A stretch of 64,000 nt of DNA, taken from positions 17,447 through 81,446 of the IMG/VR virus record IMGVR_UViG_3300045146_000214; one strand, given 5' to 3'. Shown here piece after piece: positions 6,180-64,000 of this stretch. Below the pieces are notes generated by a model. The model was not told the DNA's origin, searched no databases, and saw only the letters and a list, made by a program, of their open reading frames with translations. Source of the DNA: a virus. A program made the translations under genes and the position numbers. Positions within the stretch are counted from its first letter, which is position 1, and the number at the start of each line of letters is the position of its first letter.

Positions 6180-6611
6180 TTAACCATTCGTGTTTGGTGT
6201 TATTAACTCTTCGGGAACAATTGCCTCTTCAACAGTGTTTGTATCAGAAAATTGGATGATTACATCTTCATATGCGACTACATCTTCATATGCGACTACA
6301 TCTTCATATGTGTCGGTAACTGGGTCAATATAACCCAAATTTAAATCCCAATCAATAAACACAGTAAAGTTAGTGTATGCAGAACCATCAGAGTAATGAC
6401 TTACCGTAGGACAACGTGTATATAAAGCCCATGTCCCCTTAATCACAGTGTTGCTTACTAACTCTGGACTTTTTGCCAAATCTCTACGTGCAACAAGTGG
6501 AGCATTATCTGTTTTAAACACAGCGTAATCTTCTGCAAATATTTTATTATTAACAGCAAAAACAGTGGCATATAAAACAAACATACCAATAAAAAATAGC
6601 ATCTTTTTCAT
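6180..6611 (-). CDS. Hypothetical exported protein (signal peptide)
   Basis: MKKMLFFIGMFVLYATVFA N-terminus (charged n-region, hydrophobic h-region, VFA cleavage-like site). Confidence 0.6.
   Translation of the reverse strand: MKKMLFFIGMFVLYATVFAVNNKIFAEDYAVFKTDNAPLVARRDLAKSPELVSNTVIKGTWALYTRCPTVSHYSDGSAYTNFTVFIDWDLNLGYIDPVTDTYEDVVAYEDVVAYEDVIIQFSDTNTVEEAIVPEELITPNTNG
6261..6310. repeat. 18-bp tandem repeat (~2.8 copies) encoding YEDVVA
   Basis: tacatcttcatatgcgac x2 plus tacatcttcatatg. Confidence 0.9.
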
Positions 6612-37515: not shown

Positions 37516-37516
37516 A

Positions 37517-43500: not shown

Positions 43501-46500
43501 ACAAACTGGCAGCGAAACAAGCATTACTGTTGAAATGCCAAAAATTGTCTCTGAAACATTCCTTCAAGACGGTGTTCAGGTTACTTACAACAAAGAGCTT
43601 TATGCCATGTCTGATATTGCCGCGTATTTCGATAAACAACTGGTGGCATATCAAAGGCATTATCAACTTTGGTCATTCATGGTTATTGACGAGTCCGGTG
43701 CTTACTTCGACTTTATCTCTTATAGTGATACTAATGATGTTGATAGAATTGAGTTGATAACCGCGCAAAGTATATCAATATTAAACAACAACGACATTAG
43801 CAGAAACTTAGGATGCTATAGCGGTCAATGGATAAATGGCGTTATATGGACTGCGGAAATGTTTTCTGAATGGCTGTTGGCAACTGTGTTTAACGTTGTT
43901 GTTAATGGTCAATATGCTGAATATAGAAATTACACAATAGACGACATTCGCACCAAGGTATTTAATGCGTTTACCCATGAAGTTGACAATATGAATTGTA
44001 GTAGAATGGCTACAATTGGTGGATGGTCATTGCATTTTGAAATGAACGATATGTTTGCGTATATGGATTGGCAATCATACCATTCGCGCCCACACCATTC
44101 GTTTATGATTGATAATGATTATAATGATAGTGAAAACACAACTGCGGCAACGTTATATTACAACAATCAAATGATGTATGAAAACAATGCCGACAATGTG
44201 CAAAGAGTTATTAATGATGCAGTTGGTGAAGGTAATGAGTCTTATACAATGTTGTTAAGGCCAACACCCAATGCGAATAATGTTGGTGATTATAGTAGAA
44301 TTTCACGTTTTGGGAAAATAGGCGAGGATAGAGTTCCTTATGGTGTAGATAGTTGTCCAAAAGAAAAATATGGCATTAATCTTCTACCAAATTCGTTACC
44401 GCTAGAATGGTTTGTTGAGTATGAAACAAATCCACAAACGCGAGCAAATCAAAGCTGGAGTTATGCGCGCCTTGATGGTATTCCTTATTATTGCAAAACT
44501 CCTTCGTTTGCCACACCATTTTATTATGAAGTAAAAGTTTCCGGCGACATCAGCAATAACGAAGCAACAGAATTGCGTGAATTAAATCCTCCTCTTGAGA
44601 TAACCAACAGCAACAACAAATTGTTTTTTGACATCTATGTTGACAATGAGTTAATACGTGATGTTGTCGTATTTGTTCGTAGTGGTGTTTATACCAACCT
44701 ATATGACTTACGTGAAGCAATTCAAAACGCACTTGATGTTTATATCAATCGTCCTTATGGTCTTTCCGGTAAAAACGTCGGCAAAATATCTGCCATAGAG
44801 TCGTATTCACGTAATCGCCATAATATGAGCGATACATTTATTAAGCGATTAATGTTGTCATTGGAAAATAATGGTATGTATAAGCTCTTGCCGAAGGAGT
44901 CGTGTATAATTGAGACATCCATTGCAACATTTAGTGCACACAACAGCACAAATACGGTAATACAGATAAATCCAATACAGTTAGTGGATATGTTAAACAG
45001 TGGCGTTGAATATAAGAATGGCCAAAGTGGTAAGCAGATATATCTAACATATCGTGCTTTGTCGGATGGTGATTTTATTGAAATAGTCGCCAATGAAGAT
45101 TTTACGTTATTGTCATATCCGGTCATTAACAATGTTACTGGTAGCTATGTCATTCCAATTGAAATAACATCGGAGTCAACAGTTATTGTAGACCCGCAGA
45201 AGAAAAGGTTGTCAATACAGATGGTTGATGGTGTGTTTAAAATTCTTCCTGCCGAGAGTGTTGGGTTCACTACAAATGCTGGCGAGTCATGTTATGAAAA
45301 TACCAGCAGTTTAATGGAAACACTGTCGCCACAACAATTGTATAATAAGCTGGTAATGAATAAAACAGCAACAATCGGTATGGAGTTTGTTGAGCATGAC
45401 GGTGAGTATTTTATTGATATTATTGCCAATGCTACAAATACACTGACATTAACATCATATACAACAGTCAACAAAACAACACAATGTTATTTGGCAGAGG
45501 CACCTATAGTAAACTTTTCCAAGAGTTTGTTGTATACCTATATTTTTGATCGAAGCATATCGTTCGAGTCTCTTGGCACGAATTTCACTATTAAGACAGA
45601 TGCAGAAGATGGTTCGGCTGCAACACTATTCCCATATCTGTTTAGACGTTATAGCTTTGTCAGAAATGATGCAAACTTTACTGCACAATCAGACTATTAT
45701 GTATATAATAAAGATGTGGTTGCAATTAAACAGTCAAATCGAAACCTCTTCCGTGTGGATGGTTTTGTCTATGATGATAAGCGTTGGTTTAAACTATGGG
45801 GTATTGATGACACCAGAGAAAGTATGGCATATGAGTTAAGACCACGCGGCTTTCATTTGGCGCAAACAACATATCCTGAAGAAGATGGTTATGCAAAGCT
45901 ACCAGATACAACTTATTACGAAGAGCAATTTCTGGTGATAGGCACAAGCAGTGATGATGGTAAATTTACGATACCACCCGCAGAAGGTCGTCGGCTTGCA
46001 TTTGATATATTCGTCAAAAATGGTGAAAGTAACTTTATTGAAGTGTATAATAACACACCAACAGTAATGCGCTTAACGTTGTTTGAGTTGGCAGATTTGA
46101 TGCAAGAACAATTCAATTCTGGTGTTAAATATGTTGATAGCGATGGCGATGAAGTTATTAATGGATTTGCATGTGGTATGTTTTCTGTTACCGCCAATCG
46201 CTATACAGATTATCAAGGTATGCCACAAGCGCAACCTTCTATTGTTATACGCTCATCAATTAGTTGGTCGGTATGTGAAGAAGCAGGCAATCCGTTTAAT
46301 TTGAGTGGAAAACAATATCAATCATATGCTGATGTAAGTAAGAGCACTATATTAAGCCCGAATAACATTACTGGTGACTATATGATTTGGGTGAATAGAG
46401 CCAAGAACAATACGTCGTTTCCAAATGGCATACCATCATTGGGTGGCGAAGTGAGACCATTTGGTGTGCTGTCATGGTCAAGCACAGAAGAGAATGCGCT

Positions 46501-49129: not shown

Positions 49130-49155
49130 ATAAAATTATTAAAATATGTGTAATG

Positions 49156-49165
49156 TCGTATATTT
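49156..49165 (+). promoter_or_regulatory. Candidate late promoter motif TCGTATATTT
   Basis: Intergenic copy ~25 nt upstream of the ATG at 49190. Confidence 0.5.
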
Positions 49166-49189
49166 TACAAACTATATAAGGAATTAACT

Positions 49190-50164
49190 ATGGATTTATC
49201 TGAAAAAATAGGCGTTAGGGGAGAGGTTAAAATAGAGGAATTTAACGCTGACGGTAAAAAGACGAATGAGTGGTTGCTGAAAAACTGCATCATGGATTAT
49301 GGTCGTTGTATTTTGCCGCTAGTGCTGGCTGGTCCATCTGCATTGCCAGCAAATTTTCCTGGTCGGACTGTTCCCTATGTCTCAAAGGTTAAATACGGAT
49401 TTGGAAGGCCATTAGGCGCAGGCGCAACAGAAAATACAGACAACAAAGGCATAACCGAGAAATTTAAGAATGTTGTTGATCCAGATGGTGCGTTGTCCTC
49501 GGATATTAATGTTGCAGAAACAGATGCTGGTTCTGCGATATGCACCGTTGCCAGTGATGTTCTGCAAGGTCAAGAACAATCAATTCAAAGTGTTGCTCCC
49601 TATTATTTACGCTTACGTGCGGGGCTACACAAACCTTATACATTTCAGCTTTCAGAAAACTCACCGTTTAATCCAGAACTCATTCGTGGCAATACAGAAT
49701 TCGATGGAAGGTGGGTTAATCCATTTCGCCCAATTGAACTTCAAGAATATGCGTCGGGATACCAGAAGAACTTTCCGCTTCCTCCACAGTCTGTTATTAA
49801 CAACGAAGAGTATTACTGGTATGGAGGAGCAACACCATCAAGTGCCGACGATTTAGTTGAAGATTTGAAAAATAATCTTCCACAATTTGGTGAATTTGAA
49901 TGGAGCGTAACGTTTAAATCGTTCTTAGACGCATCCGCAAGAGTAGTTGAAACAGTTGACAATAATCAGTTTGTGTCCGATGATGGACTTTCATTTGATA
50001 TTAATGAAATTGGACTTTTTTCAGATTTCACCAGAACAGATAATTGGGTAACATTGAATAACCGCTCTTATCCATTAAATCCTATGCTGGCAATGCGCTA
50101 TACACCAACTATTAGAAAAAAGAGATTGTTTAGCTTGCAGATTTCTTGGTCTATTATATTCTAA
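49190..50164 (+). CDS. Baseplate/tail-collar fibre attachment protein
   Basis: GVRGEVKI...KNCIMDYGR N-terminus; INEIGLFS...MLAMRYTPTIRK...LQISWSIIF C-terminus typical of collar/fibre-anchor proteins. Confidence 0.65.
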   Translation: MDLSEKIGVRGEVKIEEFNADGKKTNEWLLKNCIMDYGRCILPLVLAGPSALPANFPGRTVPYVSKVKYGFGRPLGAGATENTDNKGITEKFKNVVDPDGALSSDINVAETDAGSAICTVASDVLQGQEQSIQSVAPYYLRLRAGLHKPYTFQLSENSPFNPELIRGNTEFDGRWVNPFRPIELQEYASGYQKNFPLPPQSVINNEEYYWYGGATPSSADDLVEDLKNNLPQFGEFEWSVTFKSFLDASARVVETVDNNQFVSDDGLSFDINEIGLFSDFTRTDNWVTLNNRSYPLNPMLAMRYTPTIRKKRLFSLQISWSIIF

Positions 50165-50188
50165 AACAATTTTTGAAAAGGAGATACA

Positions 50189-51190
50189 ATGGCAATTAAT
50201 CAACGTGATGGAATGGTGACGGGTCTTGAAGGAACGCCAATAATGGTTTCTACCAATCGCGGTAAGATACGATTATTTTCAACCGGACCAGCAACAGAAG
50301 GAATACAGGCACTTGTTCCAGCAGATCCAGCAATTCCTGAAACATGGAACCGCGCCTTCAAGCGTTTAGTGTTTAACGATCTTGATGAATTTTTCAGAAA
50401 CACACGAACGTTTAAAATAGAGCGTAATGGCGACAATCGTTATGCCTTTTTTGCGTATGATGCACCGGAACAAGGCACGGCACAAATTCAGCCAACTGTT
50501 GTTTCGTTCGTAAAACCGTTTCATTCTTTCACAAACGTTGGTGAAGGTGTTGGTGCATTTGACACAATGGTATATCTGTCACAATACATCCCTAATAATG
50601 CAAATCTTTGGGGCACATCCAGAGCAGGCGAGGATATAGACGCTGATTTCAATACATCTTCGATTAGTAGCAACTTCTGTTTTGATTTCGGCGTCTCTTC
50701 ATATGAAAGCCCCTTTGTCGAAAGCTCATTTGACGATAATTATAGCTTCAGCAAAACTCCTCAGCCGCGCATTACTATTGCTGGCAAAGGTAAGAATGCA
50801 ACATTTATCAGCGGCTTGGGTCTTAATTTAAGCAATATGTTCGTTGAGTTAAAGGACTTAACGATTGTTGCAAATCCTTGGTTATTTACTGTTGCGCCTA
50901 CCGCAGAATTGATGTTTAATAATGTTAAAATTATTGGCAGTATGAATACCGGATCGGAGTCTTCGCTGCCATATTGTCGTGGAACAGTAGAAATTTCTAA
51001 TGATAATAGCTCTTACACATTGGCGCTTAATAACTTGGCGGCAACAAAACTGCTGTCGTCATCAGCATTTAGTGGTAATGGGTTCTATAGACTAATCGGC
51101 AACACATATCATGAAATAGCATACTGGGGCGACTCAACGGCTCAAGGACGCGCATCATCAACAAATACTGATGTTGGATTAATCGAATAA
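50189..51190 (+). CDS. Tail fibre-related structural protein
   Basis: LVPADPAIPETWNRAFKRLVFND resembles a fibre N-terminal motif; no signal peptide. Confidence 0.5.
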   Translation: MAINQRDGMVTGLEGTPIMVSTNRGKIRLFSTGPATEGIQALVPADPAIPETWNRAFKRLVFNDLDEFFRNTRTFKIERNGDNRYAFFAYDAPEQGTAQIQPTVVSFVKPFHSFTNVGEGVGAFDTMVYLSQYIPNNANLWGTSRAGEDIDADFNTSSISSNFCFDFGVSSYESPFVESSFDDNYSFSKTPQPRITIAGKGKNATFISGLGLNLSNMFVELKDLTIVANPWLFTVAPTAELMFNNVKIIGSMNTGSESSLPYCRGTVEISNDNSSYTLALNNLAATKLLSSSAFSGNGFYRLIGNTYHEIAYWGDSTAQGRASSTNTDVGLIE

Positions 51191-51206: not shown

Positions 51207-53195
51207 ATGTATAGATTTATTTTACTATCAATTGTTGGTGTTGCTTTAGTTGTTGGTGATGAGTTTCCAGCACGACTACCAAATGTCCGACAAAACTATC
51301 GCAATAATGAAATAATCCAATATTCTGATGCTAACCACATGGGCAGAACTATTAATGCGCTATGTGAAAAAATTGGAATTAATAACACGCAACTTTATGG
51401 TAATCGTTATACCAATACCTTTGACTATAAAATCTATTTGTTGTTCTCAAATGCAATTGCCAACAATGCCAGTATTAATTACTTAATGGAGAACGGTTTA
51501 GGAGGTAGCTCTGCCAGTAACGTTGTTTCTGATGTTCTCTATATCACGAGAAGCCCAGAAAACAGTGACCGAACAGTTGGTTTACGATTATACTATGATA
51601 TGGACAGTTATACCAATAATGCTCAAATAGGTTATCAGTTCTATGTTTTTGAAGAAACAAACGCATATGTAGCAGGGCTTACCAATACAGTGTTGGTGTC
51701 AGAATTTGAGAACGAAATGAGATTTTATGGTTATCAAAAAGGCGGCGTAGAGACACCATCAAGAAACGCGCAAAATATGGTAATGAAACTGGTTGCGCCA
51801 ACATTGGAATATTCTGGATCAACCAACGCATACACTTCTGTCGGTGGCGGTGCATATTTTGGCCAAGGTCTTGTTGTTGATGATCGCAACTTTATCACTA
51901 ACAACAACAACTTTTATCGCATTGATGAGCGCGAAAAGTTTTACATGCCAGTCACGACCAGCAATAGCCAGTCTTTTGTGTCATATGTAAATCCTGGCGA
52001 AGTATCTAATTGGTATGGAAGTTTTCTGGTGTTTAAACCAAAACCACAAGGATTAAGTAGAAAAATACCTGTTGGCTATGAGTTTGTTGATGATGAAGAA
52101 TTTCCTGTGTTTACTATTCGTGGAAAATTAAATGCATCAGGATTTATCACCAATGTATATCAGTATTGGGTGGCAGATTTTCATTTCACTAAAGTAACAG
52201 GAGTGCCAGAGCCGGTTGATACAGAGATATATGATGCAGTTCCCATGGGTTTTCTTAACAAAGAGTTTGACCGAAAGATACGGCAATATCAACTAAACTT
52301 AATGGAGTTTAATCCTGAATCGGCAAAGACAATGGGACAATATCGTCAACTTTCAGACAGACATTATTACAATACATTATCGCACATCTTTGTTAATCCA
52401 GTTATTTCGACCAACCCGTTAGTGAGTGTTGGTGGAACGAATATGGTTATGCACACGATGTCAACGCAGAACGACAATGATGGCATCCTGTTGTCATATG
52501 ATGATGTAGCCACCAACTCCTATATTGGTGGTGTATCGTATCCAGCGCAGTTTACCTTTTCTGGCATTATTGTTGACCCATATAACGTTTTGCCAAATCT
52601 TTACGGCATTAAGGCAAGAACAGAATATACTGGTTTGGCAAGAATAGAGCCAAACGAAAACTCAACAATTGTTACGGTTAATCCCTTTGAGAACGAGTCT
52701 GGGCTGACTGCGTTTTCTACGGTGATTGGACCAAATACAGCAATATTGGCAACACCTTTTAAGGCACCCAGTTCATTGTATTGGTATTGGGTGGAGTATA
52801 TAACAACCAACCAATTTAGAATATGCTTGGACGCACCGCAAAGTCAAGCAGTGCCGTTTAAATGGATAATACCACATGTATTAACCGCAACATATAATTC
52901 TGTGGAGTATCCAAAAAATAGAGTGCTGTTGGGTGATTCTGTTATTATCTCCAACGGCCAAACGGAGTCATATCCGATAACGATTAACAATCTTCAATAC
53001 AAGATGAATAACTTTACCAATGAAGTTGCGCTGTTTACACCATTGGGTTATACTACGAATATTTTTGGTGGAACGAATTTGATAAGCTGGTATCAGGTAA
53101 GAGAGCTAACGTCAACAAGCTCTTTAGTGAAGGTAATTGTTGATGCACCAGTAACTCGACCAATAAGATTTAATTGGGCAATATTTAAAAAGTAA
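51207..53195 (+). CDS. Tail fibre-like protein with N-terminal signal peptide
   Basis: MYRFILLSIVGVALVVG leader; then FP..LP...IQYSDANHM..TINALCEKIG fibre-type motif; two C-terminal TP...W...F.I.(L/V)DAP...F.W.I beta domains. Confidence 0.6.
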   Translation: MYRFILLSIVGVALVVGDEFPARLPNVRQNYRNNEIIQYSDANHMGRTINALCEKIGINNTQLYGNRYTNTFDYKIYLLFSNAIANNASINYLMENGLGGSSASNVVSDVLYITRSPENSDRTVGLRLYYDMDSYTNNAQIGYQFYVFEETNAYVAGLTNTVLVSEFENEMRFYGYQKGGVETPSRNAQNMVMKLVAPTLEYSGSTNAYTSVGGGAYFGQGLVVDDRNFITNNNNFYRIDEREKFYMPVTTSNSQSFVSYVNPGEVSNWYGSFLVFKPKPQGLSRKIPVGYEFVDDEEFPVFTIRGKLNASGFITNVYQYWVADFHFTKVTGVPEPVDTEIYDAVPMGFLNKEFDRKIRQYQLNLMEFNPESAKTMGQYRQLSDRHYYNTLSHIFVNPVISTNPLVSVGGTNMVMHTMSTQNDNDGILLSYDDVATNSYIGGVSYPAQFTFSGIIVDPYNVLPNLYGIKARTEYTGLARIEPNENSTIVTVNPFENESGLTAFSTVIGPNTAILATPFKAPSSLYWYWVEYITTNQFRICLDAPQSQAVPFKWIIPHVLTATYNSVEYPKNRVLLGDSVIISNGQTESYPITINNLQYKMNNFTNEVALFTPLGYTTNIFGGTNLISWYQVRELTSTSSLVKVIVDAPVTRPIRFNWAIFKK

Positions 53196-53205
53196 GGAGA
53201 ATATA

Positions 53206-53949
53206 ATGAGAAAAATCGTTTTTATGGTCTTTATTGTTTCGGTTGCGCTATTTGCCGATCAACAAATTGCCAATGATCTTAATTTGCTGGGACATACACT
53301 TAAGGGAGTTAAGTCTTTCAGTAAGCCAGGTGGAACAACGTGGAACTTTATAGAGTCAAATCAAGTGGTTCAAATATGCACGAATTTTGATGGTAATATC
53401 AGCAATGCAGTTATTAATAGTGCTATTAGTAGAGATACTGCGGTTAGTAATGCTTTGAGTGCTGTTTTAACCAACACTATAGCGATACTGACAAATGCAG
53501 CATTACCAAGAGCGCAATGGGCAAATGTAGCAAGCGTGGCGAGTAACTTGATTAACAAAAATATTATTACATACGATATGGCGTGGTATGATAATTCAGT
53601 TGCCGTAGAAGTTCCTAATTACATCTCTATACAAGTTTATAACAATAATGTCGCTATAGACAGAATGGTTCTTTTAAGAGTTTGGTTATCTAATAGCTTA
53701 GACCCAAATGGAGAAATTCCAGAAGAACACCCAAACCCTGTTCCGCCTGTTTTTGAAATTAGTCATGGAAAAGGCGTAGTATTGAAAACTGTTACAACAG
53801 GTAAACAACTTGATGTTCTTACAGATAAAGATGGTTCTCTTGAATTAAAAGTTAAGTTTGACCATCCCGAACCAAATGTTTATTTAAATATTAAGTCATA
53901 TAACGGCGTTGTCACAAATAGTTCTAGTGTGTCTTGGGTAGAACCATAA
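53206..53949 (+). CDS. Exported fibre/decoration-like protein (paralogue family)
   Basis: MRKIVFMVFIVSVALFA|DQQIANDLNLLGHTLKGVKSFSKPGG. Confidence 0.6.
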   Translation: MRKIVFMVFIVSVALFADQQIANDLNLLGHTLKGVKSFSKPGGTTWNFIESNQVVQICTNFDGNISNAVINSAISRDTAVSNALSAVLTNTIAILTNAALPRAQWANVASVASNLINKNIITYDMAWYDNSVAVEVPNYISIQVYNNNVAIDRMVLLRVWLSNSLDPNGEIPEEHPNPVPPVFEISHGKGVVLKTVTTGKQLDVLTDKDGSLELKVKFDHPEPNVYLNIKSYNGVVTNSSSVSWVEP

Positions 53950-53968
53950 CAGCAAACACAATATATCT

Positions 53969-54664
53969 ATGAAATACATCTTTCTTATAATTTGTTGTAG
54001 TGTTAGCGTTGTTTTCTCAGCAGAACAATCAATCAACACGAATTTGGATGTACGCGGCAACTCCATAAAAGAAGTTGGCTCTTTTACTAAACCAAGTGGA
54101 GCATATTGGGTGTTCTTAGAGTCAAACGATGTTGTTAATATATATAGAGGTTATGATAATATTATCACTAATCTGTTGTCTCAAGATATCGTCAATAGAG
54201 ATATACTTGTTAGCAATGGATATTTAATTTCATTAACCAATGCAATAATGTTTACTAACTCTGTTGTGAGAGCAACAGAATATGCTGAGGTAGCCAACAA
54301 CACTAGTAATATATATGATAGCGGAGATGTTTTTACATTATATACAATTGTATATAGCAAAGCACGATTTGATATAATAGCGTCTTCTTCATTAAATATG
54401 AAAAAAGTATATGAAGTTTGGTTTTCTGATACGTTAAATCCAAACGGAGAATCTTCTTCATTTGACGAAACGCCGACATTTACTGATTGTCGTCTTATAA
54501 AAACTGTGACTTCTGGAAAACATTGGGTAGTGATGAGTAATTCAAGTGGGCAGATTAGATTATCATTTGACACAACTCCAGAGTTGAAAGATATTCAATG
54601 TTATTTTAATATTGTTGATAATTATGGTTGTGTTACAAATTGTCATTTAGATAATGATTTGTGA
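53969..54664 (+). CDS. Exported fibre/decoration-like protein (paralogue family)
   Basis: MKYIFLIICCSVSVVFSA|EQSINTNLDVRGNSIKEVGSFTKPSG; C-terminus shared with 53206 (VW.S..L.PNGE, KTVT.GK). Confidence 0.6.
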   Translation: MKYIFLIICCSVSVVFSAEQSINTNLDVRGNSIKEVGSFTKPSGAYWVFLESNDVVNIYRGYDNIITNLLSQDIVNRDILVSNGYLISLTNAIMFTNSVVRATEYAEVANNTSNIYDSGDVFTLYTIVYSKARFDIIASSSLNMKKVYEVWFSDTLNPNGESSSFDETPTFTDCRLIKTVTSGKHWVVMSNSSGQIRLSFDTTPELKDIQCYFNIVDNYGCVTNCHLDNDL

Positions 54665-54667
54665 TAA

Positions 54668-55876
54668 ATGCTCTACTCCCGTAAAATGGTACGCACATAT
54701 TTCTATACTACATTTTTTCTTTGTCTGCTATCTTATGGAGCAGAACAAATATTTACTAGTGATATAAATTTGCGCGGCAACTCATTAAGACAAGTAAATA
54801 AAGTCACAAAGCCAAATGGATTTCCGTATGAGTGGACTGAAATACAGTATGTGGATGGTGTTTCTAATGCTGTGGCAAGCGCAAGTGTAAGTAGAGACAA
54901 CATCTTAGGCAATTACTTATCTAACTATGTAGTGTTTGCCAGTAATGTTGTAGCAAGTGCAAGCGTAAGTAGAGACAACATCTTAGGCAATTACTTATCT
55001 AACTATGTAATGTTTGCCAGTAATGCTGTAGCAAGTGCAAGCGTAAGTAGAGACAACATCTTAGGCAATTATTTATCAAATTATGTGGATTCTGTTGAGT
55101 TAAGAAGTTATATTTCTCCAGGGTCTGATGGTAAAATAAAAACCAATGGTATTAGTTTGCTGGCATATGATGGAGCATCTGTTACTAATTTGATATATGC
55201 GTATGCCGAAGCTGATGATTCTATGGTAAAAAATGCTATTATAGAGTTAAAAGCCAGAACTTATGGTAGCATCGAAGGAACGCAAAGAACGGGTATCGTG
55301 TCAGTTGCAGGCTCTAAGATAATTAATGTGGATAGTCCAGTTTTAGACAATGATGCTGCAAATAAGATGTATACAGATATTACGAGCAACAACATCGTGC
55401 TCGCTGCAAAAAATTATGTAGATTTAAGAAAAACTATAGCATGGCCTAAAATGTGGAGCGACAGTACTGTGCTTTATCCATATAACACTCATATAGCTAC
55501 AATGCGTATGCGGCCTGCCAATTATGATTATTCGGGCGAGTTAAACTCCATAATTGTTCCAGCAAACAAGTTGCTTATTGTTAAATATAACATGATAAAT
55601 GATATATCTGCCACGAACATTGGCATTAGACATACATTATATTTTTATAATTTAACAAATCTATATTATTCTGAAGATTTTGGTATATACAGTTACACAG
55701 TTAACAATTATTTTGGTGATAGCTTTATAGGTTGTGGATTTTGCACATATTCTCTATGGGCATCAAATATAGTTGAGACACACGATAAAATAACATCTTT
55801 TCAAATGGGAAGAGTCGTTAATGACAACAATACTTCTACTAGTTATTTATATAATTTAGAATATTGGCTTGAGTAA
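54668..55876 (+). CDS. Exported fibre-like protein (paralogue family)
   Basis: ...FFLCLLSYGA|EQIFTSDINLRGNSLRQVNKVTKPNG; fibre neck motif KIINVDSPVLDNDAANKMYTD. Confidence 0.6.
   Translation: MLYSRKMVRTYFYTTFFLCLLSYGAEQIFTSDINLRGNSLRQVNKVTKPNGFPYEWTEIQYVDGVSNAVASASVSRDNILGNYLSNYVVFASNVVASASVSRDNILGNYLSNYVMFASNAVASASVSRDNILGNYLSNYVDSVELRSYISPGSDGKIKTNGISLLAYDGASVTNLIYAYAEADDSMVKNAIIELKARTYGSIEGTQRTGIVSVAGSKIINVDSPVLDNDAANKMYTDITSNNIVLAAKNYVDLRKTIAWPKMWSDSTVLYPYNTHIATMRMRPANYDYSGELNSIIVPANKLLIVKYNMINDISATNIGIRHTLYFYNLTNLYYSEDFGIYSYTVNNYFGDSFIGCGFCTYSLWASNIVETHDKITSFQMGRVVNDNNTSTSYLYNLEYWLE
54863..55087 (+). repeat. 78-bp tandem repeat, ~2.9 copies (ASASVSRDNILGNYLSNYV(V/M)FASN(A/V)V)
   Basis: gtagagacaacatcttaggcaatta recurs at 54891, 54969 and 55047. 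Confidence 0.92.
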
Positions 55877-55900
55877 TACATTAATTTAAGAGGAGAATTT

Positions 55901-56770
55901 ATGCGTTTAATTTATATAGGACACGGCATTAATCAATATCCGAATGTTGACAATGGCGGTAGTAATTTGTCAAAGTGTGTTGACGATGTTAAAAGAGTCT
56001 CATCAACATTAAAGAAATTTGGCTTTGAGCCATTTTCATACTTTGACTGGCAATGCACAAAAGCGGATGTTCTTAATCATTGGAAAACATCAGTGTCAAT
56101 GGTTAAGCCTGATGAAAAAGCATTAATTGTGTGGCATAACAGTTCTCATGGAACACAAGTGCCGACCAAAGATCCAAATGAGCCTGATGGTATGGATGAA
56201 GCCATTTGCTGCCATGATACAAAGTGGGGCAGAGACAGATTTGATGGTGTGATAATTGATGATGAGATTAAAGCGATACTCAATACTATTTCAGAAAACA
56301 TTACCATTGAGTTCATCTGTGACAGTTGCAATTCTGGTGATTTAACAAGAGGTTTTGTGCCACGACCGATTAAGAACAGAAAGTTCTTATATCCGCGCAA
56401 CTATAAAACCGGCAAGATTGTTCGTTCATTATCCGACGGTTTTCTTGAGCTTTCATCACGCCATATTTTATTGGCTGGTACTGCACCGAACAAATTCAGC
56501 TATGAAGATGCGTCAGGTGGCCTATTGTCAACCAATATATCAAAAGTCATTGAGTCCACATTACCATATTTGCCGACAAGAAGGGAAGCAATTGCGTATA
56601 TTATACGGGCGATTAAAGATAAAGGCTATGACCAACCAGCGCATTATGAAGCCAAACCGGAAGCTATGAGTTGGTGTGCATTTTCACTTGATAATAGCAA
56701 GGTTTCTCCAAGTAATCAAGGTAATTGGTTTACACGAATGATTAGAAAACTATGGATGATAATTTTTTAA
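55901..56770 (+). CDS. Metacaspase/caspase-like C14 peptidase
   Basis: GINQYP, CVDDV, HNSSHGTQV (His), EPDGMDEAIC, IIDDEI, ICDSCNSG (Cys). Confidence 0.9.
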   Translation: MRLIYIGHGINQYPNVDNGGSNLSKCVDDVKRVSSTLKKFGFEPFSYFDWQCTKADVLNHWKTSVSMVKPDEKALIVWHNSSHGTQVPTKDPNEPDGMDEAICCHDTKWGRDRFDGVIIDDEIKAILNTISENITIEFICDSCNSGDLTRGFVPRPIKNRKFLYPRNYKTGKIVRSLSDGFLELSSRHILLAGTAPNKFSYEDASGGLLSTNISKVIESTLPYLPTRREAIAYIIRAIKDKGYDQPAHYEAKPEAMSWCAFSLDNSKVSPSNQGNWFTRMIRKLWMIIF

Positions 56771-57144
56771 GTTTTAGACAATTATTAGACGAAAACGTTC
56801 TTTTTCATGGATCAAATAAGGCTTTCAAAACTTTTGACAATCCATCAAAAACAACGTTACGTGGCACCGGTGTATTCTTATCAAATTCTATTAAATACGC
56901 TCGCCAGTTTGGTCAATATGTTTACGTTGTTGAAATTGCCCTGAAGAATCCAAAGACATATGAAACCAGCGTGGATTTTGAAGTGGATGTTATGAAAAAC
57001 AACACTGCCAATGCTTTATTGCGTAATTTGATGAAGCAGGGTCATGATGGTGTTATTATTAATAAGTCAAAGGTGAATACGGGTGTGGTAAAAGAAGTAA
57101 TTTGTTTTGAGCCAACATCTGCTGTAATTAAAGGAACAATATGA
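56752..57144 (+). CDS. ADP-ribosyltransferase-like protein (ART-PolyVal/DarT-like fold)
   Basis: LFHGS..AFKTFD...GTGVFLSNS..YA..FG.YVY.V....KNP...GHDGVII...EVICFEP. Confidence 0.75.
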   Translation: MDDNFLSFRQLLDENVLFHGSNKAFKTFDNPSKTTLRGTGVFLSNSIKYARQFGQYVYVVEIALKNPKTYETSVDFEVDVMKNNTANALLRNLMKQGHDGVIINKSKVNTGVVKEVICFEPTSAVIKGTI

Positions 57145-57473
57145 AAGATATAGACGCATTAATAGAGAAGGCACTTAAACAGTTGGAAAATTTCAGCATT
57201 AATGATCGTCAACTGGCCGATGAAACATATGCCAAGTTTAATGATGTATTTGAAATGGCGCGATCAACCAATAACAAAATTCCTGATGGTATTATTGAGG
57301 GAATGAATAAAGCGTTATTATTGCGTATTGCTTCAACGGAACGATTAAGCAAAATAATCAATCAACTGTTACGGCTGCGTTCAAGTGTTGAAAAACCTTA
57401 TAATGAAGGTAATGCTGATGATCATAAAGAATTGTTGAACAAGTTAAACAAGTCACAAGGAGTTGCGGTATGA
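57141..57473 (+). CDS. Hypothetical helical protein (weak resemblance to terminase small subunits)
   Basis: 110-aa coiled-coil-like ORF; resemblance is only general. Confidence 0.5.
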   Translation: MKDIDALIEKALKQLENFSINDRQLADETYAKFNDVFEMARSTNNKIPDGIIEGMNKALLLRIASTERLSKIINQLLRLRSSVEKPYNEGNADDHKELLNKLNKSQGVAV

Positions 57474-58012
57474 ATGAAAAATACACCGTGTGGATACCAA
57501 TTGTAATCTCCATTGTCACCGCTCTTATTACCTACGGCTTTTTCAATTGGAAGGCTGTATTGTCGAAATTGAATGTCTGGATGCTTACGCTATTGGGTAA
57601 AACGCCAACAGTTCTTGATGAACAACTTTATACTATATTAGTGCAGCATGTCGCCGAATATATGAACTCTGATGACTTTAAGGGTCATTGGTTGCGCGTT
57701 AATGATATTGTTAAAGATGGGAAAATTACTGATGAGGAACTGGCAATATTGAAGAACGTTTTTATAAAGTCGTTGGCGCAAGATTTAATAAAAGTTGGCA
57801 TAAATGTGTATAGCAATGAAGGAAGAATTTTATTAGTGCAAGCAATTGATGAGTTTACTGCCTTTGTGATGAAGAATGCTACGGATATGAATTGGTTTAA
57901 GAGAGTAGGATTGGGATTGATTATGAGTTCGTTAAATCGTTGGATAAAAGAAAAGATAGAGGGATGGATATTGCAGAGTAAAGTCACAACAATAAAAATT
58001 TACATAAGGTAA
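57470..58012 (+). CDS. Membrane protein, possible holin
   Basis: N-terminal TM segment VWIPIVISIVTALITYGFF followed by a soluble helical domain. Confidence 0.5.
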   Translation: MNEKYTVWIPIVISIVTALITYGFFNWKAVLSKLNVWMLTLLGKTPTVLDEQLYTILVQHVAEYMNSDDFKGHWLRVNDIVKDGKITDEELAILKNVFIKSLAQDLIKVGINVYSNEGRILLVQAIDEFTAFVMKNATDMNWFKRVGLGLIMSSLNRWIKEKIEGWILQSKVTTIKIYIR

Positions 58013-58017
58013 CTATC

Positions 58018-60252
58018 ATGATAAAACGCATATTATTTTTGCTTTGTATTGTTGCACTTGTTGGTGCCGAAGAGAAGTTTACTACACCCATAAATATGAT
58101 GGGGAATACAATACAAAATCTTGGTCAATCTGCAACACCAAATCAAAATGAGGCAGTTACATATGGCTATGTTAAAGAATATGTTGAGAATATTGATGTA
58201 GGTATTGCCAGTATGAGCATGTTTATTTCCAATTATATAGACAGTGCAAATTTAGCATCAAAAGAATATGTTGGAATAACAGTGAACACTATTGTGACAA
58301 ACGAAATTACAATAGCGGGTTATGTAAATAAATCCGGCGATACGATGACGGGCCTGCTTACCACGCCCAGCAACGTCATCGTCGGCGGGCTGGCAATTGG
58401 CAATGTGCCTGTACCTGACATTGGAGAACACCCATCTGGCAAAGGCGCAATCAACATGGGCCACAACGAAGGCACGATGACCGCATACGCTCCCGGCACG
58501 CAAAACGCGGGATACAACTTAGGCACGATGACCGCATACGCTCCCGGCGCGCAAAACTCTGGCTATTGCAGCAACATAGGTACGATGACCTCATACGGGT
58601 ACGGCTCGCGAAACTCAGGCGAAAACTCCGGCACGATGAGCGCAAGCGGTCGTGGCGCGCAAAACGACGGTTACAACATTGGCACGATGACCGCAAGCGC
58701 GAGCGGCGCGCAAAACATTGGCTACAACTATCACACGATGACCGCAAGCGGGCAAGGCGCGCAAAACGCGGGATACAACTTAGGCACGATGATAGCAAGC
58801 GGAAAAGGTGCGCATAACGCGGGATACAACTTAGGCACGATGATGGCAAGTGGCGACGGCGTGCTAAATCGCGGCTATCTTAACAGCGGTCAATATTGCA
58901 CAAATTCCTGTAATGGCAGCGTTGCTCTGCTAGACGCCAGCGGCAATATGCTGGTTACCAACCACGCAGCGATTGTGCTTGGCAGCGGCTACAGCGCAGG
59001 TAACCGCACGCTTGTTGCTGACGCGGTTGTGATTCGCAGCATGGGCAGCCGCACGACTGACGCCGCCACCAAGGGCTACGTTGACGCCATTTCCAACGCC
59101 GCCCATGCCGCCTATGTGAATAAATCCGGCGATACAATGACAGGTATGCTCACCACGCCCAGCAACATAATCGTCGGCGGGCTGGCAATTGGCAATGTGT
59201 CTGTACCTACTGGCGAAGGCGCAATCAACGCGGGGCAAAACTATGGCACGATGGACGCAAGCGGGCGCGGCGCACAAAATTCCGGCGAAAACCATGGCAC
59301 GATGACCGCATACGCTCCCGGCGCGCAAAACTCTGGCTATAACATAGGTACGATGACCTCATACGGGTACGGCTCGCGAAACTCAGGCGAAAACTCCGGC
59401 ACGATGAGCGCAAGCGGTCGTGGCGCGCAAAACGACGGTTACAACATTGGCACGATGACCGCAAGCGCGAGCGGCGCGCAAAACATGGGCTACAACTATT
59501 ACATGATGACCGCAGGCGGGCAAGGCGCGCAAAACGCGGGATACAACCTAGGCACGATGATAGCAAGCGGGAGAGGCGCTCGCAATTTCGGGTATGTTAG
59601 TTCTGGCCAAACCTGCTCCAATTCGGGTAACGGGTCATTCGCGCTTCCAGACGGCAGCGGCAACCTGGTGCTGTCAAATGACGCTGCAATAGTGCTCGGT
59701 AGTGGCTACAGCGCAGGTGACCGCACTATCGTCGCTGACGCGATTGTAATTCGCAGCATGGGCAGCCGCACGACCGATGCCGCTACAAAAAGCTACGTTG
59801 ATAACTGTACTAATGCCATAAGATCAGCAAGCGCACTGGCCGTCATAGGTGGATTGTTCCAAAACCAGATGACGAACGGCGCGTATCAAGTGCGATATAT
59901 GGCGGGCGAAACGCTGGTGGCCGGAAATTTGGTTTCGGCGTCGGTTGATGTTGACTATCAGGTACGCAAACTTGTTGCTGCTGGGTATGACTGTATCGGT
60001 GTTGCTTCACACGCAGCAACATCTGGGCAGTATGTGTGGGTTACAGTGAGCGGCATGGAACAAGCATTGATCTATTCATGGCCGACTCGCGGGCACGTCG
60101 CGCTGGGCGGCCCGGTCGCCGGTGCTTGCACAAACATTGCTGTGCCATCATCGAGTCCGTCGAACGATGAGCACTGGCGCGAGATCGGACATTTCATGCA
60201 GACCGGCACAAACACAGCCGGTCGCGTGTGGGTAAACCTTCATTTTCAATAA
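58018..60252 (+). CDS. Adhesin/tail fibre-like protein with signal peptide, 17-aa beta-roll repeats and a DUF2190-like C-terminal domain
   Basis: MIKRILFLLCIVALVGA|EEKFTTPINMMGNTIQNL; YVNKSGDTMTG x2; GTM(T/S)ASGxGAQNxGYNx repeats; TDAATK.YVD x2; C-terminal AGETLVAGNLV...IGVA.HAATSGQYVWV. Confidence 0.75.
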   Translation: MIKRILFLLCIVALVGAEEKFTTPINMMGNTIQNLGQSATPNQNEAVTYGYVKEYVENIDVGIASMSMFISNYIDSANLASKEYVGITVNTIVTNEITIAGYVNKSGDTMTGLLTTPSNVIVGGLAIGNVPVPDIGEHPSGKGAINMGHNEGTMTAYAPGTQNAGYNLGTMTAYAPGAQNSGYCSNIGTMTSYGYGSRNSGENSGTMSASGRGAQNDGYNIGTMTASASGAQNIGYNYHTMTASGQGAQNAGYNLGTMIASGKGAHNAGYNLGTMMASGDGVLNRGYLNSGQYCTNSCNGSVALLDASGNMLVTNHAAIVLGSGYSAGNRTLVADAVVIRSMGSRTTDAATKGYVDAISNAAHAAYVNKSGDTMTGMLTTPSNIIVGGLAIGNVSVPTGEGAINAGQNYGTMDASGRGAQNSGENHGTMTAYAPGAQNSGYNIGTMTSYGYGSRNSGENSGTMSASGRGAQNDGYNIGTMTASASGAQNMGYNYYMMTAGGQGAQNAGYNLGTMIASGRGARNFGYVSSGQTCSNSGNGSFALPDGSGNLVLSNDAAIVLGSGYSAGDRTIVADAIVIRSMGSRTTDAATKSYVDNCTNAIRSASALAVIGGLFQNQMTNGAYQVRYMAGETLVAGNLVSASVDVDYQVRKLVAAGYDCIGVASHAATSGQYVWVTVSGMEQALIYSWPTRGHVALGGPVAGACTNIAVPSSSPSNDEHWREIGHFMQTGTNTAGRVWVNLHFQ
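58321..59802 (+). repeat. Internal ~790-bp duplication containing nested 51-bp repeats
   Basis: Blocks start at 58321 and 59113 (tatgt(a/g)aataaatccggcgatac); ~280 bp nearly identical (58522-58802 vs 59296-59570). Confidence 0.9.
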
Positions 60253-60260
60253 GGGATAAT

Positions 60261-60584
60261 ATGAGTATACGAGTTAAATACTTAATCAAGGCCAACACAC
60301 TGATGCTCATTGCATTCGGTGCGATACTACCACTCGCTCTCAACGCCTTTGGTGTAGATGTGCCGCTGCCAACCGCTGACGAACTGGGCCGTTGGCCTGC
60401 GGCTACGTTGCTTGGTGCAGTCTCAATTTCGTCCATGTGGTTTGCCTATCGCACGTGGACGAATAGTATGAAAGCACAAATTGAAACTGCAAAAGCACTG
60501 ACACTCCTTAGTCAACGTCCTTGTATGAAAGACATACGAGAGGCAGATTACAGACGAATAAAGACAAAACAATGGAGTGGGTAA
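60261..60584 (+). CDS. Holin-like membrane protein
   Basis: Two hydrophobic segments then LTLLSQRPC; GC-rich like the upstream fibre; ATG after AAGGGA. Confidence 0.5.
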   Translation: MSIRVKYLIKANTLMLIAFGAILPLALNAFGVDVPLPTADELGRWPAATLLGAVSISSMWFAYRTWTNSMKAQIETAKALTLLSQRPCMKDIREADYRRIKTKQWSG

Positions 60585-61180
60585 GAAACTCTATTCGTGG
60601 TGTAATTGAGGGCAGATATAAAGAATATGATGATAAAGTAATAATAGACAAATCTAGAGAGTGGCCTTTGCACTCTCTATTGCTGCGAGACCTATACCCT
60701 CAAGCATCAATATTATTATGTGTTAGAGATTTAGTTGATGTGTTTGACAGTATTGAACGAAGAGAAAGGGACACCGCCTGTTTAACGCAAGCGCAAAAAC
60801 CATATGATTTATGTATTGGTAATCGTGCTGAAGCTATGATTGGCCCAGAAGGTATTATCGGTTCTCCTTTAGTTGGGATTCAAGACATGTTAAGACGTAA
60901 ACAGTCTTTTGAGGTTGTCAGATACGAAGATATGTGTGATGCCCCCGATATTGTAATGCGCAAAGTAGATAAGGCATTAGGGCTGGAATCATTCTCATAT
61001 GATTTTGATAACATTCAAAACACTAGCGATGATGCTGATGGTTTATATCTTTGGAAATACCCTCATAGCGGTTGTGGTAAAGTTAAAAGAGAGAAAAAGG
61101 AATATTGTTTCACAAAAGACATTGAACTTCGCATAAAAGAAGTTCATGGGTGGTATTATAAGCAATTCTACGGATCATAA
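60521..61180 (+). pseudogene. Sulfotransferase-family gene lacking its N-terminal PAPS-binding loop
   Basis: IIDKSREW, ILLCVRDLVDVFDSIER (3'-PB), VRYEDMC..P..VM..V...LG....YDFDNI present; no PRSG(T/S)T-type 5'-PSB loop seen upstream. Confidence 0.6.
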
Positions 61181-61186
61181 TAAAAT

Positions 61187-61921
61187 ATGACAAAATACAA
61201 AGGTTGGCTACCAGATATACCTGACTTTCGAGATTATATTTATTCTTCTCGTGCAGTTGTTGTATCAGAGGTAATTGACTTGCGCTCGGTTTGCTCTACC
61301 ATTGAACACCAGATGTCAATCGGAAGCTGTACAGCACAAGCAATTGTTGGCATGTTAGAATGCATTGAAAACAGTAAACGTAAATCATATACTGACTTAT
61401 CTCGTCTGTTTGTGTACTACTATGAGCGTGAAATAGAGGGGACAATACATTATGACAGTGGTGCTTATTTGCGCGATGGTATCAAAGTTCTCAAAAACAA
61501 AGGTGTCTGCGATGAAGTTCTTTGGCCATATGATATTAACCGTTATAAGGAATGCCCACCAATTGAATGTACAATGAATGCGCAAAGACGTAAAATTACA
61601 CAATATATGCGCATTACTAACTTAAACGATAAGTTACAATGTTTAGCAGAAGGATTTCCATTTGTGTTTGGTGCAGCGTTATATTCTTCTTTTGATACTG
61701 ACATCACAAAGAAAACTGGTGTTATCCCTATGCCACAACGAAGTGAAGAGTTTTTAGGAGGTCATGCCATGTGTTGTGTTGGTGCAGATATGATAAAAAG
61801 GAATTTCATTATACGCAACTCATGGGGTAAGGATTGGGGCGATAATGGTTATTGTTATATGCCTTTCGATTATTTAAATAACGACAATTTAAGTAATGAC
61901 TTTTGGACAATACGATCATGA
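61187..61921 (+). CDS. Papain-family C1 cysteine peptidase (xylellain-like)
   Basis: GWLPDIPDFRD, QMSIGSCTAQA, LSRLFVYY.ER, GGHAMCCVG, IIRNSWGKDWGDNGY. Confidence 0.92.
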   Translation: MTKYKGWLPDIPDFRDYIYSSRAVVVSEVIDLRSVCSTIEHQMSIGSCTAQAIVGMLECIENSKRKSYTDLSRLFVYYYEREIEGTIHYDSGAYLRDGIKVLKNKGVCDEVLWPYDINRYKECPPIECTMNAQRRKITQYMRITNLNDKLQCLAEGFPFVFGAALYSSFDTDITKKTGVIPMPQRSEEFLGGHAMCCVGADMIKRNFIIRNSWGKDWGDNGYCYMPFDYLNNDNLSNDFWTIRS

Positions 61922-62502
61922 AAAAACTTTACGCAATCTGGTCAGCCATTTTAACATGGTTCGGTGACTTGTATTTAGCTACCAGTCCACCTAAAATAAA
62001 AGCCAAAGATTTACGTGCAATGCTATCACTGGTTGAAGCTGGTGATATTCTTTTAAGAAGGTATAAGTCATATTTGGACGGATATTTTATACCTGGGCGT
62101 TATTCACATAGTTCTATTGTGGTGGATAAAAACAGTGTAGTTCATGCGGCTGCGGAAAGTGTAGAAAAAATTGACATACTTGATTTCTGCTTGCATACTG
62201 ATGGGTTCTGCATATTGCGCCCCAAATATTTGAACAGTAATTTTGCAGAACAAGTCGTCCGAACAGCAATAAATCTAGTTGGTCGGCCATATGATTTTGC
62301 GTTTAATTCATATGACACATCGGCGTTATATTGTCATGAGCTTACCAATACAAGTTTGTCAGCAGTTGGATTAAGCGTTTCTCCCAAGCGTAGAAAGGTG
62401 GCTTTGTTTGTGCATCGAAATGTTATTATTGCAGATGACTTTCTCAATAACTTCGATATCGTGTATGAAACAGATGTAAAGAGAATACGAAAAGCACTAT
62501 GA
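61918..62502 (+). CDS. Permuted papain-like NlpC/P60 amidase (YiiX/YaeF, C92-like)
   Basis: GDILLRR, IPGRYSHSSI, VVHA, GRPYDFAF, LYCHEL; ATGA overlap at 61918. Confidence 0.85.
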   Translation: MKKLYAIWSAILTWFGDLYLATSPPKIKAKDLRAMLSLVEAGDILLRRYKSYLDGYFIPGRYSHSSIVVDKNSVVHAAAESVEKIDILDFCLHTDGFCILRPKYLNSNFAEQVVRTAINLVGRPYDFAFNSYDTSALYCHELTNTSLSAVGLSVSPKRRKVALFVHRNVIIADDFLNNFDIVYETDVKRIRKAL

Positions 62503-63746: not shown

Positions 63747-64000
63747 ATGAAGAAATACATTTTGATATTACTGGTAACGCCGATACTGTGTGCATCAGTG
63801 TGGACAACAATCATTGATCCAAACTTGCCAATTACAATTATCAACAATAGCACCAATATGACAGTTACGATTGGCACGATGACGTTTCTACCAAATTCTA
63901 CTAATGACTTAGGCAGAACATATTCGCGTGAAGAGATAAATTTAAATATTCGCTATATTTACAACAGAATTCTTTCTGGAGGAGTTTTAACCAATAGTGT
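63747..64000 (+). CDS. Exported protein with signal peptide, partial (runs off the window)
   Basis: Manual translation MKKYILILLVTPILCASVWTTIIDPNLPITIINNSTNMTVTIGTMTF...; AGGA RBS. Confidence 0.6.
   Translation, partial: MKKYILILLVTPILCASVWTTIIDPNLPITIINNSTNMTVTIGTMTFLPNSTNDLGRTYSREEINLNIRYIYNRILSGGVLTNS

Follow-up and report, generated by a model that had tools for sequence, protein, structure and literature searches.

In a 64,000-nucleotide stretch of DNA from a large, uncultured phage of lake water (positions 17447-81446 of an IMG/VR virus record of 81,446 bases; this whole stretch is called the window below), five fibre-like open reading frames (ORFs) that follow the genes of a contractile-tail baseplate each begin with a short hydrophobic leader. 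Judging from their layout, we consider it quite probable that these leaders are working Sec signals and that the proteins are exported as such. With less confidence, and at somewhat under an even chance for the chain as a whole, we propose that the five ORFs encode trimeric fibres that would be exported through Sec, cut by signal peptidase and joined to the phage particles at lysis. The leader-bearing ORFs, together with one membrane protein that stands in contrast to them, are given here, each named by its first listed position (aa, amino acids).

51207-53195, plus strand: fibre-like late protein of 662 aa; leader at residues 1-17 (51207-51257), then a conserved (D/E)(F/Y)P..(L/M)P.
53206-53949, plus strand: small fibre-like paralogue of 247 aa; leader at residues 1-17 (53206-53256), mature N-terminus with LNL.G..L..V.
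53969-54664, plus strand: small fibre-like paralogue of 231 aa; leader at residues 1-18 (53969-54022).
54668-55876, plus strand: fibre-like paralogue of 402 aa; leader at residues 1-25 (54668-54742), with a KIINVDSP....DAANK.Y.D motif.
58018-60252, plus strand: mosaic fibre-like protein of 744 aa; leader at residues 1-17 (58018-58068).
63747-63998, plus strand: further leader-bearing ORF, MKK followed by a 20-residue uncharged run, cut by the contig end.
6180-6611, minus strand: leader-bearing ORF of 143 aa in the minus-strand replication-gene block; start at 6611, uncharged run of 17 residues.
57470-58012, plus strand: membrane protein of 180 aa; its N-terminal hydrophobic helix spans 21 residues and has no small-residue site, in contrast to the leaders.

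The initial annotation, made from the sequence without database searches, had placed five such ORFs at a tail-fibre locus right after the baseplate genes, and they lie there as described, with all the fibre motifs that it quoted. The ORF 51207 is the first gene past the leaderless baseplate-side genes, and the same-strand run of baseplate and fibre-like genes contains gaps of 16, 10, 19 and 3 nt. In the program list, the ORF of 63747 has its start at a TTG codon (63720); read from the ATG at 63747, it begins with MKK. No fibre motifs and no Pfam or NCBIfam match were found for 6180. Within 54668, a 78-nt tandem repeat at 54865-55086 (2.8 copies, 93% matches) corresponds to a repeated 26-aa unit.

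All seven leaders carry one to three K/R and no D/E ahead of the hydrophobic run. In the five fibre-like ORFs, the uncharged run is 13-16 residues long and is followed by a small-residue site and then by D or E; the runs are longer in 63747 and 6180, where they are less clear as h-regions shorter than a membrane helix. The cleavage sites quoted in the initial annotation (VVG↓D, LFA↓D, FSA↓E, YGA↓E and VGA↓E) are all in the sequence. Those of the forms V-x-G↓D, L-x-A↓D and V-x-A↓E satisfy the small-residue requirement at -1/-3 directly; in 53969 and 54668, the residue at -3 of the quoted site is F or Y, and a cut one residue earlier suits the -3/-1 rule better. With runs of 13-16 residues against 21 in 57470, the leaders resemble cleavable Sec signals rather than anchors, as had been supposed, and no further hydrophobic segment was found in the mature parts of the five. 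Under the positive-inside rule, the N-terminus would stay inside and the body would come to lie outside. As K/R before the run and acidic residues after it predict translocation, and short runs with small residues predict cleavage, we read these leaders as probable working Sec signals.

Other readings of the leaders were tried and rejected. A lipoprotein reading failed, as the window's leaders are without a lipobox ([LVI][ASTVI][GAS]C). A signal-arrest-release (SAR) domain, whose N-terminal helix is weakly hydrophobic, contains much G, A and S and can slip out of the membrane, does not fit: I, L, V and F prevail in the runs here, and in four of the five the Kyte-Doolittle mean over 10 residues is 2.9-3.6. 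Leader removal by a prohead protease was rejected as well, a hydrophobic leader not being a known capsid-targeting signal. The S/G-A-E before the mature part may resemble the S/A/G-x-E sites of phiKZ-type proteases.

The restriction of the leaders was assessed in the 62 ORFs of at least 70 aa in the whole 81-kb record, with a threshold of at least 2.4 for the N-terminal 10-residue Kyte-Doolittle mean. Only 6 of the 62 reached it, namely 6180, 51207, 53206, 53969, 57470 and 58018. The hydrophobic run of 54668, which is rich in Y, T and F, reached only 1.96, and this ORF was counted by its leader anatomy instead; 4758 (GTG start) reached 2.31, under the threshold. Counting 54668, a leader was present in all five fibre-like ORFs and a hydrophobic N-terminus in 2 of the 57 others (Fisher p = 3e-6); by the strict threshold, the numbers were 4/5 and 2/57. 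The two non-fibre ORFs flagged were 6180 and 57470, the latter a true 21-residue membrane anchor. Both the claimed confinement of the leaders to the fibre-like set and the claimed lack of a leader in the neighbouring baseplate proteins were thus found in the scan. As a control for this heuristic, the scan was also run on the cultured T4-like pelagiphage HTVC008M, over 35 annotated genes in the surroundings of its gp6 homologue; it flagged only an 'outer membrane porin' and a cyclase, and none of the baseplate or fibre genes.

AGGA-like sites were located upstream of 51207, 53206 and 58018, and no clear ribosome-binding site was seen for 53969 and 54668. The in-frame alternative starts lie either inside the leader or at codon 26 or later, where they would delete residues that are conserved in homologues. 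Wrongly called starts are therefore unlikely on this comparison, and the leader-containing starts given initially are to be preferred to downstream ones, which would cut away conserved mature sequence.

By the comparisons made, the leader is conserved as a property and not as a sequence. Members of the 51207 family are few: among 1.84 billion representatives, a full HMMER pass gave 5 proteins at E ≤0.001, and P0010 was added by a word-based search. P0012 and P0018 are fragments that start inside the protein and were excluded from the leader count. A leader was present in all five full-length members, namely P0008 (the window's protein), P0009, P0010, P0011 and P0013, with 24-41% identity; these leaders differ in sequence, yet all of them stop just ahead of the conserved (D/E)(F/Y)P..(L/M)P. 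The same leader was found in 6 further members of the P0011 cluster, and independent gene calls in the homologues take in the leader. P0013, a distant member from a JGI metagenome, has a leader with a lipobox-like V-S-S-C and may be a lipoprotein. For 58018, the two closest homologues, P0002 and P0003, are both leader-bearing; of the matches further off, P0004 is a fragment, a leader is doubtful in P0005 (score 2.0, no K/R) and P0006 is without one. The question whether homologues keep the leaders, raised with the initial annotation, can thus be answered positively for the full-length members of the 51207 family and for the two closest homologues of 58018.

The mosaic structure of 58018 bears on the same point. 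A block of high G+C content (GC; 58300-60460, plus strand, ~0.51-0.63 vs ~0.32 upstream) starts inside 58018 and ends inside 60228-60584. Within 58018, GC jumps from ~0.32 to ~0.57 at ~58300, at residue ~95, and the GC at third codon positions (GC3) of mature 58018 is 0.576 vs ~0.22-0.39 in all other genes measured. The BLASTP homology of 58018 to P0003 starts at residue 96, exactly at the GC switch, and that to P0002 is limited to the body. The protein consists of a native low-GC N-module (~residues 1-95) and a high-GC body in which G/A/Q/N-rich repeats of 17 aa form two arrays. Its distal part looks like a fibre cassette imported from a higher-GC source, perhaps recently, the leader and the first ~95 residues being native. 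In three phages, one and the same fibre body is combined with N-terminal modules that are unrelated to each other, and all three modules bring a leader of their own. This suggests that the leader is under selection as a feature of the fibre and did not arise by chance in a single sequence; among the arguments for such selection, this pattern is the strongest here.

The end of 58018 had been described as DUF2190-like. This holds only as a sub-threshold match of the C-terminal end to Phage_cement_2, the former DUF2190 (E 0.073, 13.9 bits vs a cut-off of 24, profile positions 21-102 of 103), and the whole-protein Pfam scan gave nothing. Overlapping the stop of 58018 by 25 nt, a 118-aa membrane ORF with two hydrophobic helices (60228-60584, plus strand) sits within the high-GC block. 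Its match to SLATT_1 is weak and sub-threshold (E 0.011, 15.8 bits vs a cut-off of 41), and its product could be holin-like or pore-forming, having travelled with the fibre cassette.

Turning to the mature parts, 53206 is paralogous to 53969 (E 5.8e-25, 36% identity) and to the N-terminus of 54668 (E 3.8e-7), and the three share a common module after the cut and have divergent C-termini (alignment A1). A common N-terminal module with a differing C-terminus, as in these paralogues, and a swapped distal cassette, as in 58018, are both typical of receptor-binding proteins. Mature 53206 (residues 18-247) was modelled in three copies with a 3-row alignment made for the purpose, and the trimer reached a score of 0.65 (runs 0.65, 0.64 and 0.65) vs 0.00 for the best of three controls, the runs agreeing in at least 65% of contacts. 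A score of 0.65 was reached by 20 of 30 solved pairs of one chain and by 1 of 23 solved single chains, a benchmark that is only rough for a 3-row alignment and three copies. The modelled interface covers residues 18-95, of which residue 18 is the first after the predicted cut, and the contacts past residue 48 show a helical period. The model lends support to a possible trimeric stalk in 53206. Atlas leads to fibre families scored 0.80-0.85, which is below the meaningful level.

The dipeptide (S/T)-N occurs 64 times in the five mature parts vs 37.7 expected (1.7x, Poisson p = 6e-5); the ratio was 0.98 for the reverse N-(S/T) in the same parts and 0.82 for (S/T)-N in 12 leaderless structural proteins. 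This excess might reflect a turn in the fibre structure and not a sequon.

In the mechanism that we propose, the chains would be made late, together with the baseplate genes, and would pass unfolded through SecYEG, the body reaching the outside and the N-terminus staying inside; the leader would be cut just before the conserved acidic residue. Trimerisation would then take place in the periplasm, from the new N-terminus. The products would most likely serve as side fibres or receptor-binding appendages, which would meet the cytoplasmic, fibre-less particle only once the holin breaches the inner membrane at lysis. We favour a fate as virion fibres because the genes are packed with the late baseplate genes, because a leader is present on all five fibre-like genes with no leaderless twin in the DNA in hand, and because the modular layout of an N-terminal anchor and a C-terminal tip is that of receptor-binding proteins. 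It is also favoured because, in Cellulophaga phage phi10:1, the distal tail proteins gp091-gp094, which are supported by mass spectrometry (MS), carry leaders. In this phage (NC_021802, 41847-48878), gp091-gp095 all start with leaders; gp091-gp094 are 'structural' from tandem mass spectrometry (MS/MS) according to the GenBank note, and one of them is annotated as a tail fibre. A leader was found in 0/8 of the other MS-supported phi10:1 virion proteins scanned.

A number of points weigh against this proposal. Tailed-phage particles assemble in the cytoplasm, and joining at lysis would be an extra step that, to our knowledge, has not been described. The five mature parts had no Pfam, PHROGs or NCBIfam family and no significant PDB match, and no baseplate-docking domain was identified in Pfam, PHROGs or PDB. 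The monomer models were unusable, with a predicted local distance difference test (pLDDT) value of 34.7 for 53206 from AlphaFold2 (AF2) on the single sequence and of 36.3 for 51207 from AF2 on a 6-row alignment. For the 53206 trimer, modelled with that 3-row alignment, pLDDT was 47-56 (partner at least 47), at which the fold is uncertain. The description of the mature domains as fibre-like finds some support in short motifs and in one trimer model, that of 53206, and none in homology to a solved or annotated fibre. The leaderless 1633-aa and 3870-aa proteins encoded upstream could supply the fibres instead, only ~35% of the genome being in hand, and the leader trait is not general to T4-like phages in the HTVC008M scan. 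As the leaders of phi10:1 gp091-gp094 expose Q at +1 (A↓Q or G↓Q, 4/4) and those of the window do so in 0/7, the five fibre-like ones exposing D or E, the phi10:1 precedent comes from another host type.

The maturation signatures sought in the mature parts speak against the proposal as well. The mature cysteine counts (2, 1, 4, 2 and 7) were not enriched in comparison with leaderless proteins and not even in number, and neither the Bacteroidota O-glycosylation motif D(S/T)(A/I/L/V/M/T) nor the PglB sequon (D/E)-x-N-x-(S/T) was enriched. The suggestions that the proteins are disulfide-bonded or glycosylated in the envelope therefore found no support, cysteine enrichment, cysteine pairing and both glycosylation motifs all being negative; N-x-S/T, cysteine enrichment and cysteine pairing were rejected as maturation signatures. 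A cargo of the type IX secretion system (T9SS) or a sorted surface protein was also rejected, as no sorting-domain or outer-membrane-anchor family was matched in NCBIfam/Pfam at E up to 0.1.

A wider form of the proposal, which we regard as possible though doubtful, would be a two-compartment virion, in which head, tail and baseplate are formed in the cytoplasm and the whole side-fibre set is Sec-exported, trimmed and trimerised in the periplasm and docked after holin opening. For such a virion it may be assumed, with the same degree of doubt, that the fibre module is portable and needs its leader, which is kept through the exchange of distal cassettes between phages of different GC.

The main rival to the virion-fibre proposal is that the five proteins are exported and act apart from the virion, as soluble or surface-bound receptor-binding modules in the envelope of the infected cell. 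There they would mask or destroy receptors, excluding superinfection or keeping progeny off debris, or would alter cell adhesion; we think this reading as a whole rather unlikely. The leader evidence for it is equal to that for virion fibres. It has models in lambda Lom, which has a signal peptide and is encoded between the tail spike and tail fibre genes according to the accessible part of PMC12309495, and in the signal-peptide genes of Porphyromonas phages, read as envelope modifiers in the accessible part of PMC10367356. The locus is full of accessory genes (caspase-like, ADP-ribosyltransferase (ART), sulfotransferase-like, and C1 and C92 peptidases), and the lack of an identified baseplate-docking domain also fits such a role. 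However, the leader is on 5/5 fibre-like genes, with no leaderless twin in 81 kb, and the genes are tightly packed with the late baseplate genes, while exclusion genes such as T5 llp are expressed early. The proteins have no lipobox, outer-membrane barrel family or T9SS sorting domain, and leader proteins at the same kind of locus are found in phi10:1 virions according to the GenBank annotation.

That the proteins are not exported at all is improbable. The hydrophobic N-terminus would then be buried in the baseplate or trimer, or would hold the subunits at the cytoplasmic membrane face where baseplates assemble. This would fit the classical cytoplasmic assembly of tailed phages and the absence of a periplasmic maturation signature from the mature parts, and we know of no demonstration that a whole fibre set is exported. 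Nevertheless, the leader sequence diverges freely and the n/h/c layout is kept, as signal peptides evolve and unlike buried interfaces; the charges around the run, K/R ahead of it and D/E behind it, predict that the body is translocated, and unrelated N-modules each have their own leader.

An uncleaved signal anchor, by which the exported fibre would stay fixed on the periplasmic side of the inner membrane until membrane destruction frees it or passes it on to the particle, has a similarly small chance. It would have the same topology signals; the F or Y at -3 of the quoted site in 53969 and 54668 is poor for signal peptidase I, and the lipobox-like V-S-S-C of P0013 would mean that membrane attachment occurs in the family. 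However, at 13-16 residues the runs are rather short to form a stable membrane helix, and the anchor of 57470 is longer; every leader offers small residues at -1/-3 (53969 and 54668 only if the cut is moved forward by one residue towards the N-terminus), and the modelled 53206 trimer interface begins at the residue right after the site. Finally, an artefact of wrong start calls or of chance hydrophobicity in an AT-rich genome is scarcely credible: although 53969 and 54668 have no clear ribosome-binding site and AT-rich coding favours I, F, L and K, alternative starts at codon 26 or later (besides those inside the leader) would remove conserved mature residues, the homologues' independent gene calls contain the leader, and just 2/57 others were flagged in the same AT-rich record.

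The source record has an estimated completeness of 35%. The window DNA was nearly whole in one lake-water metagenome run (X1, share 0.97), which may be the source sample, and three further lake-water runs from other studies (X2-X4) contained short near-identical contigs that cover parts of it, the pieces at ≥99% identity numbering 11/16 in X2, 8/10 in X3 and 9/12 in X4. The uncovered parts and the loose contig ends at 58345-59284 in X2 and X4 were too short for interpretation, and a joint in X4 (59306>58465) falls between the two repeat arrays of 58018. There was no RNA run among the sequencing runs listed as carrying window DNA. No tRNA genes were found in the window. The contractile-tail baseplate module forms a plus-strand block from ~17.8 kb on, and the genes upstream of and between the fibre-like genes are as follows.

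17813-18805, plus strand: T4_baseplate / baseplate hub protein (Pfam E 3.6e-12; phrog_150).
26656-28260, plus strand: gp5-like OB-fold protein of the baseplate module.
32614-51190, plus strand: leaderless baseplate-side genes, directly upstream of the fibre-like genes; no leaders in the hydrophobicity scan.
32614-37515, plus strand: gp6/Baseplate_J-like protein of 1633 aa (Pfam Baseplate_J E 6.8e-4, below cut-off).
37517-49129, plus strand: giant protein of 3870 aa with no leader, directly after the gp6-like gene.
55901-57473, plus strand: leaderless accessory genes between the fibre-like genes; no leader in the scan.
55901-56770, plus strand: caspase-family peptidase, leaderless (PF00656, E 2.6e-15).
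56752-57144, plus strand: stand-alone ART-PolyVal ADP-ribosyltransferase, leaderless (PF18760, E 2.1e-8).

Compared by tblastn, the 1633-aa gp6-like protein matched genes annotated as baseplate wedge/J in 157 phage records (~22-26% identity). No Pfam family was found for the 3870-aa ORF, which is presumably a giant baseplate or fibre protein, and two small leaderless proteins of 324 aa and 333 aa are encoded between it and 51207. A leaderless 110-aa ORF is the third accessory gene within 55901-57473 (plus strand). Leaderless enzymes are interleaved with the fibre-like genes at 55901-57144 and at 60521-62502 (both plus strand), the latter stretch encoding a sulfotransferase-like protein (below cut-off), a papain-family C1 peptidase (E 1.7e-14) and a C92 permuted papain amidase (E 5.1e-13).

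No close cultured phage was found: the DnaE-like polymerase of the record has ~28-30% identity at best to cultured phages, and this polymerase and the gp6-like protein together reach ~22-30% only. Among GenBank phages, nothing was returned by megablast of the locus or by tblastn of 58018 and 51207. No relatives were found in IMG/VR with 58018, 51207, alignment A2, 49190 and 50189, in JGI metagenomes with alignment A2 and P0013, or in GTDB genomes with P0005, and a word-based search with 53206 returned only itself.

The initial annotation had stated that leader-bearing fibres were not described as a system. The literature searches made agree with this, as they gave no description of leader-bearing tail fibres as a system, supplementary files not being covered; however, a cultured precedent exists in the GenBank annotation of phi10:1. 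The parts of PMC3322345, PMC5723332 and PMC13274417 that were available contained nothing relevant to leader-bearing fibres. The nearest publication, as far as its available text goes, is that of Matrishin et al. 2023 on Porphyromonas phages: signal peptides are reported there for capsid, spanin and unknown genes, and the term 'tail fiber' does not occur in that text (PMC10367356).

In textbooks, tailed-phage assembly is wholly cytoplasmic. If fibres for host recognition are routinely exported and joined to particles at lysis, the assembly pathways, the timing of infectivity and the roles of lysis proteins need revision, and such a revision, if true, would concern a sizeable part of environmental phage diversity. 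The annotation rule 'signal peptide means not a virion protein' would then be wrong, and recombinant receptor-binding proteins for host-range work would need periplasmic expression. What this locus contributes is a T4-type large phage, leaders of a non-Bacteroidota type, a natural experiment with three N-modules and a negative result on cysteine pairing.

Among known systems, the baseplate-attached fibres of T4-type phages (T4 gp12 and gp34-37; the fibre genes of HTVC008M) resemble the locus in their position, as the genes here lie directly downstream of gp6-like and giant wedge genes in a late operon, and in having several fibre genes with a modular, swappable distal part. They differ in having no leader (none in the HTVC008M baseplate/fibre genes scanned), and no homology to them was detected. 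In phi10:1, a cultured siphovirus of a Bacteroidota host, distal tail genes likewise follow the tail core genes and carry short Sec-type leaders, and their products include a 'tail fiber protein' and pectate lyases. The window phage, in contrast, has a T4-type baseplate; no sequence similarity was found between the two (tblastn of 51207 and 58018 against the phage collection was empty), and the phi10:1 leaders obey the Bacteroidota Q rule, whereas those of the window precede D or E.

Exported 'moron' proteins, such as lambda Lom and those of Porphyromonas phages, are also phage gene products with Sec signal peptides, as described in the accessible parts of PMC12309495 and PMC10367356. Lom differs in being a beta-barrel protein that enters the host membrane (PMC12309495, accessible part). 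Fibre motifs are not described for these proteins in the same parts of the two sources, whereas here the leader is on all five fibre-like proteins themselves.

The mosaic adhesive trimer (MAT) fibres of Bdellovibrio bacteriovorus, as presented in the accessible part of PMC10769870, are phage-tail-fibre-like, carry a signal peptide and are located on the cell surface. They are cellular proteins on the surface of a predator and not products of phage late genes, and their conserved N-domain has ~130 aa vs ~45-95 aa for the shared N-module here. Like the proteins proposed here, they are trimeric, with the signal peptide directly before a conserved N-module, variable swappable tips and folding outside the cytoplasm. 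One MAT fibre, expressed at full length behind a PelB leader, formed fibres (PMC10769870, same part), and by analogy, extracytoplasmic folding of phage-tail-fibre-like fibres would be feasible.

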